In this document: positions 6,201-49,067 of the stretch, one piece after another
Position numbering within the stretch: position 1 is the stretch's first letter
Layout: the number at the start of each line of letters is the position of its first letter
Source: Octopus vulgaris
Lineage: Eukaryota
Length of the DNA stretch: 64,000 nucleotides
Assembly: GCA_951406725.2 (NCBI GenBank)
Contig: OX597816.1
Location: forward strand, 177,258,001 to 177,322,000
Reading direction: 5' to 3'
Translations under genes and position numbers: made by a program
The notes under the pieces: model-generated
What the model was told of the DNA's origin: nothing
What the model saw: only the letters and a program-made list of their open reading frames with translations
Database searches by the model: none

Positions 6201-6424
6201 GCTTTAACGAAAGACGTGTGGTGGACCAGGTTGAAAGGATTGAAGACACTTGAAAAGGAATGTGAGGGAAAAGAAGAGGGAAATGATGCCTTCCAGTCAA
6301 GTTATTGATCGTTGGGTGGAAGGATAGTCCGAGTAAACGAGTCTGCTCTTTTGTCCATTACCTTATGCTTTTATAATTCCTTCGTTTTGAAGTTTCTATT
6401 CATTAGTTATCATTATTCAAGTAT

Positions 6425-7164
6425 TCAGTCTTTGGTCATATTCTTGTCTGTTGGTGGTTTTACTCGAAGGAGATATTTGCGAAGTGTTGTATTACTCTTG
6501 AATACTGTCCTGATGTCATATGGGCCGCTTATCTTTTGTATCTTTTCGGAGAGGCCTTTCACATAGAGTAGACAGACTGTAGACAGTTTATTGGCCTCAT
6601 CCTCTCTTTTCTTCATAATTGGAGTGGATTGTATGTTTTTGGGGTAGTTGTTACTTAGCTTGATCATTTCTTCGTGCTGGGTATCACGATCACTACTTAT
6701 ATTATTTGCTCAATGTTTTAAGCACTGAGCAGTCCCTCTCTTTACACTGTATGGATAGTGGGAATTGAAGCTGAGGTGTAGTCCAGTAAAGGTCGGCTTG
6801 CGGTATACGGATGTCCTGAATCCTTACTTGGTGCTTGTTATTAATACACCCAGGAATGCCAGCTGATTGTCTTTTTCCTTTTCCATTGTAAACTATATGG
6901 ATGGCTTTATTGAGTTCACATGATCTAACAGCATTTAGACATCTTCCTGGTGGGCCAGAGTATAAAGGTGTCACCAACATATCGCAACCCTAGGGTTGGT
7001 TTTAGTAGTGTTGATCCTAAAGCCAAGTTCTCGAAGTATTCCACGTATATATTGGCTATTATCGGTGATAATGGCGAACTCATAGCTAAACCCTCTTCTT
7101 GTCGATATATATCAGTGTCCATACTGAAGTAGGTAGTTTCTACACAGAAGGTCAACATTTCCAA
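6425..7164 (-). mobile_element. Penelope-like element RT/thumb fragment (inverted part)
   Basis: 'YRQEEGLAMSSPLSPIIANIYVE', 'RYVGDTF', 'YVKGLSEKIQKI...VFKSNTTLRKYL'. Confidence 0.85.
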
Positions 7165-44668: not shown

Positions 44669-45590
44669 AGAGAACAAAAACGCAATAGAGGACAATAAAA
44701 CATTCGGACAGATAGACGATACAAAAGTGGACAAGTGAAACAACAATTTGAAGGATAGGCAAAAAAAATGACGGGGCATTCGGGGCCTTCCTTCCTCAGT
44801 CAAGTACCAGGAGTCACGACCGTTTGGGGCAGTTACACTTGAGACAGTTCGATCTGGTTGCCCCCCAAAAAGTCGAAACTGAGAGCATTAGACTCCTTTG
44901 TAAGAAAGCTACCGAATGTGTACGAAAACAAAGACAAAAAAAAACGGAGAACATGGTACACAATAACATATACAAACTACAAGAAAATAACAATAGGTGT
45001 CTTTCGATTGAAAGCGAACCCAATTGAGCTGGCAAGTGTGAAGTGAAAGCCTAAAGGCAGGAACATAGGAGATAGCCATAAGAAGTGTTGGCCGTCTGCA
45101 GTCTGGCTAAGAAAAAGATCATGCGTGGCCGGACACCGGCCACGTGAAGGAGGAGAGATGGGTAGGGGGCAGCGGGATTGAAGGATTAGAAAAAATTCAG
45201 AGAGAAAGAGAAAGGTACAGGGGAGATAAACGAGTGGGAAATAGTGGGGGTTAAGGAGAGGGCCAAGAAATGTGAGAGAGAAGGGAAGCGAGAGAAAGTA
45301 AAAAGTAAGAAAGTAAGAGGGGGACTAAAAGATAGAGTAAGAGTCGTACAAAATTTAGATACACACCTACTATAAGGCGAACACATGGGTGTACGTACGC
45401 CGCTATATGTATATATAAATATAAAAATGGAACAAAAACGCAATAGAAGACAATAAGACATTCGGACAGATAGACGATATAAAGGCGGACAAGAGAAACA
45501 ACAATTAGAAGGACAGGGAAAAAAAGACGGGTCATTCGTGGCCTTCTTTCCTCAGTCAAGTACCAGAAGTCACAACCATTTCGGGCAGTT
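44660..45590 (-). mobile_element. Non-coding element with terminal direct repeats (pLTR-like), flanked by (TA)n
   Basis: ~44670-44834 is similar to ~45430-45590 (period ~756); related sequence at ~48240-48520. Confidence 0.65.
44777..44918 (-). ncRNA. Candidate structured RNA, copy A (multi-pseudoknot, unknown class)
   Basis: Seven helices with compensatory changes against copy B; G-U bias points to the minus strand. Confidence 0.55.
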
Positions 45591-45699
45591 ATATATATAT
45601 GTATGTATAGGGATGTATGTGTGTGTGTATGCGTGCGTGCGTCCAATTTACATATACATGACTATTGGTATGTGCAGAAATAAAACATATAATGAACAT

Positions 45700-46016
45700 G
45701 CGCTTGCTTCTCTACCACGTGGTCCTGGGTTCAGTCCCACTGTGTGACACCATGGGTAAGTGTCTTCTGCTATAGCCTCGGGTCGACCAAATCCTCGTGA
45801 ATGGATTTGGTAGTCGGAAACTGAAAGAAGTCCGTCGTATCAATGTATGCACCTGTGTTTGTGCCCCCATCATCGCTTGATAACCAATGCTGGTGTGTTT
45901 ACGCCTCCATAACTTAGCGGTTCGGCAAAAGGGACCGATAGAATAAGTACTAGATTTGAAAAGTAAGTACTGGGGTCGATTCGTTCGACTAAAACCCTTC
46001 AAGGCGGCGCTCCAGC
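45700..46016 (+). mobile_element. SINE family B (degraded)
   Basis: GGTTCAGTCCCAC head and 3' half. Confidence 0.75.
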
Positions 46017-46346
46017 AAAATACAAAGGAAGGGTGGAGAAAGGAATTTAAGTGCAAATATAAAGTATGCATCTACACACACATATAATATATACCGTGCT
46101 CTCATCATATCCAAAACCCGAAAAAACATATCTACATCTATATAAACAAGTATACACAGCCATATTTATGAACGTACATGTACGCACACTGAAATACGTA
46201 GAAATGCAAACTTAGACAAACACACATTGACTCTAACTAGAATATCCATGAGTTAAAGCTTTAATCTAACATCAAATTCTATGATTCGTTTTGTTTTAAT
46301 TATATTAATATAATAGTTCACGTGCTGTTTAATGAATGACATACCT

Positions 46347-46762
46347 ATTTCTTTATTACCCACAAGGGGCTAAACGTAGAGGGGACAAACAAGGACAGGC
46401 ATAGGTATTAAGTCGATTACATCGACCCCAGTGCGTAACTGGTACTTAATTTATCGACCCCGAAAGGATGAAAGGTAAAGTCGACCTCGGCGGAATTTGA
46501 ACTCAGAATGTAACGGCAGACGAAATACCTATTTCTTTACTACCCACAAGGGGCTAAACGTAGAGGGGACAAACAAGGACAGACATAGGTATTAAGTCGA
46601 TTACATCGACCCCAGTGCATAACTGGTACTTAATTTATCGACTCCGAAAGGATGAAAGGTAAAGTCGACCTCGGCGGAATTTGAACTCAGAATGTAACGG
46701 CAGACGAAATACCGCTAAGCATTTCGCCCGACGTGCTAACCACTCTGCCAGCTCGCTCGCTT
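46347..46762 (-). mobile_element. Head-to-tail dimer of SINE family A with 14-bp TSD
   Basis: TSD TGAATGACATACCT at 46333-46346 and 46763-46776; internal period 184. Confidence 0.85.
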
Positions 46763-47330
46763 TGAATGACATACCTTTTGCTTCAAGGCAAATAGCACAC
46801 TACTTTTGGTATTGCCATTACTCCACACAACTTGGTTTTGTTGCATGTTTGAAAGATATTCTGTGTATGCATATATTCGTTTATTTCGTTTGATATTTAC
46901 CCTCCCTTTCCTTAGAGTTCTTGTCTCTGGGTTTTTCTGTCCTTGTTCGTCTGATCCGGCAGATTGCATTGCTGATATCGCACAGTTGGGCTTGTATTGT
47001 CGGAAGGTGTCGGGGTTTGTTGCATTTGGTCAGTAGATGATGGGAGTTAGGGTAGGTGTCTGCTTTCGTTTGTACTTTTCATTTTAGTGCATTTTCCCTG
47101 TAGGTTTCTTTCTTGTTCCTGAGCTATGTCAATGGCAGAAATCACTATTTTTCTGGATCAATTCTCTCCCAGTTCATATCCCATCTGGAATGGCCAACGA
47201 TGTGGCCTGTTAATACTTTTATTGATCTGCTTTATGACTTTATATTAAGAATTAATTATGGAATCTTTTCTCAAAAAGTTAATAGTTTATATTGGACCAT
47301 ATCTATGTTTCTAGATTTATGCAAATTGCT

Positions 47331-47795
47331 GTTCCTTATCTCTATAGGTGATAAAAATCTCAGGCGGCTGGTTGGTTGGTCAGTTGTATACGCTTAATGT
47401 TGTATAAGATGAGAGCAAAGGTGAGAAAAAAAGAGAGAATATATGTACGTGTGTGTGTGTATGTAAAAGAGAGAAACAGATACAGTTCCTTATCTCTATA
47501 GGTGATAAAAATCTCAGGCGGCTGGTTGGTTGGTCAGTTGTATACGCTTAATGTTGTATAAGATGAGAACAAAGGTGAGAAAAAAAGAGAGAATATATGT
47601 ACGTGTGTGTGTGTATGTAAAAGAGAGAAACAGATACAGTTCCTTATCTCTATAGGTGATAAAAATCTCAGGCGGCTGGTTGGTTGGTCAGTTGTATACG
47701 CTTAATGTTGTATAAGATGAGAGCAAAGGTGAGAAAAAAAGAGAGAATATATGTAAGTGTGTGTGTGTATGTAAAAGAGAGAAACAGATACAGTT
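47331..47795. repeat. 154-bp tandem repeat x3
   Basis: Units start at 47331, 47485 and 47639; nearly identical. Confidence 0.92.
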
Positions 47796-48151
47796 AATAT
47801 AAAAGGTTCAGGATGGGAGCACATACTAGGCTTGGTAACAGGAGCAGGAGTAGCAGTAAATGATAGAATAGTTAAGGAAGAAGTTATGTGAGAAATTTGT
47901 TATATTTACTTTTATTTAAGGTAATAAATATTGTTGCTTTGAAAATAACTTAGTATAAACATTAGAAATTTGATAAAAATTCAATTATAATTATTGTATG
48001 TATTCCGTATTTCCTGCTATCACCCAAGGCAGAAAAAGTATACTTCCAAAGTTGTACGTTATATGAAGAGTAACTGTATTTTTTTATATATGTATTATTT
48101 TGTGATAAGTATAATATCTTTAATCTTAATACCGAATCATTGCCTCTTCCT

Positions 48152-48249
<98 letters not shown>

Positions 48250-48307
48250 TACAAACTGGGACAAGAACGCAAAACATTTAGGAGACGACACAAAAACACG
48301 GACGGGA

Positions 48308-48450
48308 CATTCGAAGCCTTCAATCTTCAGTCAAGAACCGGATAATCCTCGCAATTTCGGCTGATTAATCTTGAGATTGCTCCAATCCAGCCAGCCTCAA
48401 GGAAAAACTAAGCTACGAGCAGTAGATTCCTTGGAAGAAAGCCTCGAATG
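48308..48450 (-). ncRNA. Candidate structured RNA, copy B
   Basis: 14-bp closing stem CATTCGAGGCTTTC/GAAGGCTTCGAATG plus six inner helices covarying with copy A. Confidence 0.55.
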
Positions 48451-48716
48451 TATACAAAACAAGGACGGAAAAACGGACGATGCTACACGAATATGAATAC
48501 AAAATAATACGTAAAACAATAATAATAATCGTGACGCATATTTGCCATTTGAATATGGCTAACCCCTAAGGGTGGATGCTACTGTAGTTTGTAGCCCCAG
48601 GAAGACACCTCCTCCAGCTAGCTATAGACACACTTTCTGTGCCCTCTCGAATGTCCCGTCCGTGTTTTTTGTGTCGTCTCCTAAATGTTTTGCGTTCTTG
48701 TCCCAGTTTGTATTTT

Positions 48717-48770
<54 letters not shown>

Positions 48771-49067
48771 CACACACACACACACACAAATATATATATA
48801 TATACAAGGAAGAGGCAATGATTCGGTATTAAGATTAAAGATATTATACTTATCACAAAATACTGATAGGGCACAGAAAGTGTCTACAGCCAGCTGGAGG
48901 AGGTGTCTTCCTGGGGCTACAAACTACAGTAGCATCCACCCTTAGGGGTTAGCCATATTCAAATGGCAAATATACGTCACGATGTGTTACCGCTACTGTT
49001 TATAACTCGCTCTGAGATTTATCATTAATAATGATAATACTTAAAAACAATAATAATAATAAAATAA

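Follow-up and report, generated by a model that had tools for sequence, protein, structure and literature searches.

A predicted hammerhead ribozyme with non-circular block order in a non-coding Penelope-like element of Octopus vulgaris

The window studied here is a stretch of 64,000 nucleotides of the Octopus vulgaris genome (GenBank assembly GCA_951406725.2, contig OX597816.1, positions 177,258,001 to 177,322,000), and two diverged copies of a highly structured motif on its minus strand raise the question of what kind of RNA they encode. A first-pass annotation had read them as a ribozyme-like RNA that is conserved and contains several pseudoknots, belongs to a Penelope-like element (PLE) and has no Rfam model, and this was upheld. 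The same annotation stated that the RNA did not fit the hammerhead, and here our analysis led to the opposite reading, as all 15 core positions are present, in a non-circular arrangement to which canonical models are blind. The predicted ribozyme is new in its wiring and its home and not in its catalytic class.

Copies in the window and conservation of their helices

All coordinates are those of the window and refer to its minus strand unless stated. The copies lie where they had been placed, B at 48450-48308, A at 44918-44777 and the partial copy C at 45591-45526, and a sequence-only RNA model run on the window matched these three known copies only. No Rfam family matched in the window at gathering score, and there was no ribozyme among the 20 weak Rfam matches around the finding.

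Copy B (48308..48450) is a complete ribozyme by sequence, with all core positions intact, and the whole B insertion (48243..48528) is a 5'-truncated copy that ends at (CA)n(TA)n. Copy A (44777..44918) belongs to a second subfamily and is wired as B, with G10.1 at 44863, C17 at 44843 and CUGAGGA at 44799-44793; it is likely inactive, since G12 is replaced by C at 44826. The whole A insertion (44670..45591) comprises a partial upstream repeat of A's element, which is copy C (45526..45591) and starts 7 nt 3' of the predicted cut, one 756-nt non-coding unit, whose body at about 45404-44941 is pyrimidine-rich, and a 3' tail reaching (TA)n. 

Several other repeats were observed. An inverted copy of B's 3' tail (48647..48720, plus strand) is part of an inverted duplication that takes in flanking DNA. 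Around copy B (48096-48983) such duplications are nested, 48096-48314 corresponding to 48862-48647 and 48528-48648 to 48983-48865, and they include flanking DNA as in complex PLE insertions. Between the A and B insertions there are two 184-nt tandem copies of a SINE-like repeat (46341-46760; others at 495, 23231 and 35386) and a 154-nt unit in three tandem copies that are 99% alike (47331-47795). A decayed fragment of a Penelope-type reverse transcriptase (RT) lies at 6416-7000 (minus), with no ribozyme copy nearby.

Seven helices, H1 to H7, had been claimed. For their evaluation, 135 full copies among 204 profile matches were sorted into eight groups of at least three, 62 copies were picked across subfamily groups and aligned, and 35 named pairs of H1-H6 were scored. 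Pairing was found in 93.2% of the cells as against 86.4% after shuffling, a value that none of 500 shuffles reached, while slid controls gave 18-41%. Cells with a two-sided change numbered 167 versus 61 in shuffles, although this test overstates the difference because the copies are related. In total 13 pairs were changed on both sides, which is not significant by itself, as 48 of the 500 shuffles reached that number; they are distributed as 3/5 in H3, 2/7 in H4, 3/5 in H5, 4/6 in H6, 1/6 in H2 and 0/6 in outer H1. The six pairs of outer H1 were paired in 95% of cells with no two-sided change, and inner H1 was left out of the count because the alignment is shifted there. H4 was paired in 85.9% of cells; in 19 of the 62 copies one of its pairs was broken (A-C), and in 22 a second one. 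Pair-breaking states also characterize some subfamilies: family A has U-U in H4, two groups have A-C or C-A in stem I, and subfamily B has two U-U pairs that adjoin A9.

These data support H1-H6, with covariation in H4 and in H6, H3 and H5 (stems I, II and III below). The strands also follow each other as proposed, with H3, H5 and H6 crossing. H7 was unsupported: the register of copy B gave no two-sided change, a result equalled by 500 of 500 shuffles. It was rejected also because the columns assigned to it differ between A and B, and because its bases pair inside H2 in most copies, its 3' side being the catalytic CUGA.

Hammerhead identity and a split core

H6 corresponds to stem I, H3 to stem II and H5 to stem III, and they are accompanied by CUGANGA, GAAA and a C17 site; CUGANGA directly follows H6' and GAAA directly follows H3' in each copy (with C for G in copy A). 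In copy B the order starts with the 5' strand of stem II (H3, 48391..48396, G10.1 being 48396), which pairs with 48364-48359, and the 5' strand of a helix joining stems I and II (H4, 48385..48390), which pairs with 48343-48338 and is placed as the helix of type SGC. Block S follows (48369..48380), with a stem III strand at 48380-48376, C17 at 48375 and a stem I strand at 48374-48369, so that the predicted cut is between 48375 and 48374. After 4-5 nt comes block G (48351..48364), formed by the 3' strand of stem II, GAAA at 48358-48355 and the other stem III strand, then H4', and finally the first half of block C (48324..48336), with the stem I 3' strand at 48336-48331 and CUGAAGA at 48330-48324. 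The core letters C3-U4-G5-A6-N7-G8-A9, G10.1-C11.1, G12-A13-A14, A15.1-U16.1 and H17 are complete in B and in the eight subfamily majorities, and identical in all of the latter save N7 and H17, while the stems change. In addition, the motif was present in contigs from four public runs, which carry four organism codes, and among variants of at least 8% N7 was the sole core position; five pattern matches were obtained from metagenomes, in none of which were the helices seen by eye.

According to Eckert et al. 2023 (PMC10085705), the hammerhead can be divided into blocks C, G and S, and the orders SGC and CSG occur and cleave in vitro; type SGC has a short link between stems I and II plus a helix joining the other sides of both stems. 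The RNA studied here does not have the circular C-G-S order and pseudoknot-free core of types I, II and III, as its order is S-G-C and its stems cross. It shows the SGC block order, the short I-II link (1-5 nt long in all eight examples) and the I-II helix (H4). However, it departs from strict type SGC in its broken block C, the stem II strand lying upstream in 83 of 97 cores. By its core and stems, as read from sequence, this RNA is a predicted hammerhead that belongs to none of types I-III.

Two further families sustain this assignment. The window family, composed of subfamilies B, A and D (2300, 2209 and 473 first-look genome candidates, respectively), has more than 6,500 copies of a non-coding tandem unit of approximately 700-870 nt; one pattern of the window's motif gave 6562 places and its reversed control none. 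Family F, found by descriptor (2866 candidates, the top matches 97-99% alike), is a young, non-coding unit of 790-863 nt with at least 1275 exact pattern matches (loci L264-L318, for example L273:900-1900), and family N (1203 candidates) was derived from the flank of locus L009. F, N and A/B/D have only words of 8-10 nt in common, yet they parse alike, and every hammerhead core letter stands at the expected helix end in these three unrelated families, stems I, II and III being of unrelated sequence in F and N. Of 24 N copies 16 kept the C-GAAAC...CUGANGA pattern intact, as did 18 of 25 in F. The 27 parsed F copies had A, C or U at H17, and a second stem III is present in F, with two compensatory changes. 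The 100% pairing of H1 in F was built into the search pattern and was left out as evidence.

The stem II strand does not stand after CUGANGA and sits upstream instead. A descriptor built on the core letters and stems I and III, run on 238 loci and the window, found 97 scrambled cores, 83 of them with the upstream strand and none with a strand right after CUGANGA, when stem II was defined as at least 4 pairs with at most one G-U, no further than 2 nt from CUGANGA. In the window it found copy B, and in 300 shuffled windows it found nothing. The strand past A9 instead forms H1 together with the motif's 5' end (in copy B, 48321-48308, starting 2 nt past A9, with 48437..48450), and the chain goes from H1 through the hairpin H2 (48398..48433), which separates H1 from the 5' strand of stem II, to G10.1. 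Family F presents the same arrangement by eye, five bases pairing directly past A9 and H2 stopping directly before G10.1, and this split wiring, with G10.1 directly after H2, is common to families A/B/D, F and N although their sequences are unrelated. In the simplest model, H1, H2, stem II and the core would meet in a four-way junction at the A9/G10.1 step. The chain would then be interrupted within the core, and the three links between blocks would all be closed. Constrained folding clearly recovered H1 in three of eight examples and often gave a local hairpin instead. Other PLE hammerheads conserve an extra base between positions 9 and 10.1 (PMC4209133). The literature searched, which included few subscription papers, reported neither a split core nor permuted hammerheads in Naiads, and a split core is not described in the accessible parts of PMC544870, PMC10162972 and PMC13725137.

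It is unlikely, in our opinion, that the core is not split at all, and that stem II is made from the bases after CUGANGA, as in an ordinary SGC hammerhead, or in an RNA dimer, H1-H3 being a resting fold. Family F does have a possible stem II of 4 pairs, two of them G-U, one base past CUGAAGA, and arthropod Naiads appear by eye to use 3-pair stems II; nevertheless, none of the 97 cores had a stem II within the definition given above. A GGC five bases past the core in A and B could pair before GAAA, but it is absent from subfamily D, whereas the upstream strand tracks its partner with three two-sided changes and pairs fully in F and N. As for the dimer, other PLE hammerheads act in this way (PMC4209133), but stem III has 5 pairs here, so no dimer is needed.

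Copy ends and mobility of the element

The split-core hammerhead predicts a bond at which the RNA would be cut, and the 5' ends of genomic copies were mapped with respect to it. For the window family, the first 100 of the 6562 listed places gave 98 distinct contexts with upstream DNA, from which four were dropped (two internal deletions, one inverted arm and one duplicated locus), leaving 94; ends beyond -140 reflect divergence from the references and were excluded. From -3 to +24 of the cut there were 33 of these 94 ends, that is 15.7 per 1000 copy-bases, 7.4 times the flanking rate. Elsewhere, there were 3 ends at +25 to +44 (1.6 per 1000 copy-bases), 12 at -103 to -4 (2.3) and 2 at -41 to -4 (0.9). 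Because this 28-nt interval had been chosen after the data were seen, a scan test was run, and none of 5000 simulations reached 33 ends in any interval of 28 nt; the best upstream edge of the pile-up was -3, followed by -4 and 0.

In family F, with the interval fixed beforehand, it contained 27 of 90 ends (from the first 90 of 1275 places, with no rows dropped), a 5.7-fold excess (p 2e-8), at 13.6 per 1000 copy-bases compared with 4.3 downstream (7 ends) and 1.8 upstream (9 ends). Ten of the 27 were at one position, and 18 remain when this is counted once. These ten copies (L377-L331 set) start 8 nt 3' of the predicted cut and have different flanks; their shared start may mark a site where joining is favoured, or a short form that was amplified again. 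Both samples were drawn from one contig, and the ends are spread across 25 nt and not at one base. Judged from genomic sequence, the pile-up just 3' of the predicted cut is likely the footprint of cleavage, and it would also point to linear cut RNA, and not circles, as the source of many copies.

The spread over 25 nt would also suit a hammerhead-derived fold that no longer cuts, in which the pile-up was produced by transcription starting there or by the RT stalling in the knot, and PMC8557442 places promoters in Penelope pLTRs; furthermore, many genomic copies, A included, have core mutations. We regard this explanation as improbable. Neither a start nor a stall is expected to place its upstream edge at the predicted bond in each of two unrelated sequences, a stall should appear on the 3' side, where the RT enters the structure and where ends were rarer, and core letters other than N7 and H17 stay constant in the eight subfamily majorities while stems change. 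The original view of a new ribozyme class, or another seven-helix RNA unrelated to the hammerhead, agrees with the lack of a Rfam match and with a topology unlike types I-III, but it is hardly credible given the core letters at the expected helix ends of three unrelated families and the failure of H7.

We therefore consider it very probable that this RNA has a complete hammerhead core with non-circular blocks and an upstream stem II strand, and that it likely cuts itself after C17 and so sets the RNA 5' end of a non-coding Penelope-like element. In the mechanism that we propose, H1 would stack on H2 within the four-way junction that they form with stem II and the core at A9/G10.1, and monomers would be released from tandem transcripts by cleavage. 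An RT of Penelope type, most likely that of a Naiad, would prime at (TA)n some 130-200 nt downstream and copy to the cut end, giving short copies, and longer copies would arise from RNA that was uncut, rejoined or used in template switching.

The structure of the element was then considered. Its copies are cut short on the 5' side and have their 3' end at (TA)n, approximately 60-110 nt past the motif; long copies are head-to-tail repeats with a spacing of 706-872 nt at 8 places, and of 790 and 863 nt in F. There is one ribozyme per non-coding tandem unit, a feature of non-LTR retrozymes, although it is not the type I hammerhead which also defines them. Neither the A/B/D units nor those of F were found with an RT or endonuclease (EN), and the window's element has no ORF, hence not that of a Naiad, with its N-terminal GIY-YIG and C-terminal RT. 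It has the build of a non-autonomous PLE or retrozyme, and it is at most a non-autonomous Naiad passenger.

Concerning the enzyme that moves it, the shared wiring and target favour a Naiad RT. On the other side, the Naiad copies observed are old (about 85% alike) whereas B and F are young, and there is an abundant Neptune family in the genome, which is a possible helper. Neptune as parent was rejected, as the GIY-YIG piece beside a copy in locus L041 comes from a different, Neptune-type family, which carries a minimal hammerhead itself; the window motif appeared in 4 of 30 Neptune-type loci, each time as a separate insertion, and Pfam gave no match on the Neptune-type EN piece. Neptune RT loci contributed nothing further on the RNA. 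This Neptune-type PLE (L062-L091) had 13263 first-look endonuclease candidates, and its minimal hammerhead, of canonical order, lies near the 3' end, its first core letters often not being CUG.

Naiads and comparison with known systems

According to PMC8557442, Naiads lack canonical hammerheads and some have cores or 'half cores' that match no descriptor. Family N matches by eye the octopus Naiad 3' ends published there. In its locus L393 the ribozyme region is preceded, at a distance of about 670 nt, by the end of an RT remnant (RVT_1, E 2e-4, short of the curated cut-off) with no EN match between, and the RT is thus the last domain before the 3' UTR, as is characteristic of Naiads; both extended copies of the family are 5'-truncated. 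The last ~650 nt of 19 of the 54 Naiad records published in PMC8557442 were parsed, by eye only. Each record was named by its position before the next header, an order checked for Lpol, Ptep and Sdum alone.

Twelve of these 19 Naiad 3' ends were read by eye as non-circular hammerheads. The CSG form was seen in five nematode records (Parc, 3_Nbra, Hcon, Hpol and Asuum), the SGC form in four from arthropods (Sdum, with a U3-A8 core, Smim, Ppla and 1_Dst, with an irregular stem II) and the split form in three from cephalopods (Obim, Ovul, and Esco, in which one stem II pair is broken). Ptep and 3_Dst parsed partially, and no hammerhead was seen by eye in the viewed portions of Lpol, Omin, Adux, the record before Cmel and the record before Obim. 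Seven of the eight 'half core' records were viewed by eye, of which six parsed and one did so in part. A 9-nt piece of the window motif had no match in the accessible supplement, where FASTA line breaks can hide matches. The record before Obim has a 3' end that by eye resembles a different, pistol-like small ribozyme, and so some bivalve Naiads may use another class.

From this survey it seems probable, though with less assurance than for the window RNA, that across nematodes, arthropods and cephalopods the Naiads use hammerheads permuted in a non-circular way, covering all openings of that class (CSG, SGC and, in the cephalopods, a form absent from the papers searched, its core opened by a four-way junction), that cutting in the germ line would fix the RT end, and that the ribozyme has spread to thousands of retrozyme-like passengers. 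If true, non-circular hammerheads would move from unassigned environmental sequence to animal genomes, in thousands of copies, the Naiad 'half cores' would be explained and the argument that Naiads thrive ribozyme-free would be undone. The pile-up of copy ends at the predicted cut would provide a genomic read-out of the role of PLE ribozymes.

Animal non-LTR retrozymes, as far as the accessible parts of PMC7229834 and bioRxiv 10.64898/2026.07.22.740005 describe them, share with the window's element non-coding tandem units, one hammerhead in each and a link to PLEs, and the unit length falls within their reported 51-972 bp. They carry type I hammerheads, however, whereas that of the window is scrambled and most of its copies are dispersed and under one unit. 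Canonical-order PLE hammerheads (PMC4209133) are likewise near the 3' end of the element and tolerate an extra base between 9 and 10.1, but they have little or no stem III and are dimeric, unlike the window RNA. A motif of this kind is found in the Neptune-type family of the genome, which is a distinct element. Naiad PLEs (Craig et al. 2021, PMC8557442) resemble the window's element in their (TA)n targets, 5' truncation, partial tandems and inverted 5' copies; they differ in that the window's unit is non-coding and has the wiring in common with them, not the sequence.

The closest relatives are the type SGC and CSG hammerheads (HRIMA-1 and variants). In the available part of PMC10085705 their examples come from metatranscriptomes and metagenomes, none from the genome of a known organism, no known alignment exceeds 1-2 nt between CUGAnGA and the stems, and the block is assumed to be unbreakable. 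They share with the window RNA the non-circular order, the short I-II link, the extra I-II helix and an identical core; in the window RNA, unlike in them, block C is opened, the RNA has its own ends there, and H1 and H2 are inserted. The stated rule of an uninterruptible CUGANGA block would then be broken, if this reading is true, and a new attachment place for engineered domains would be available. What is new here is the wiring, with its opened core, and the home of the ribozyme, and not the catalytic class, as the SGC order has been known since 2023 from environmental sequence.
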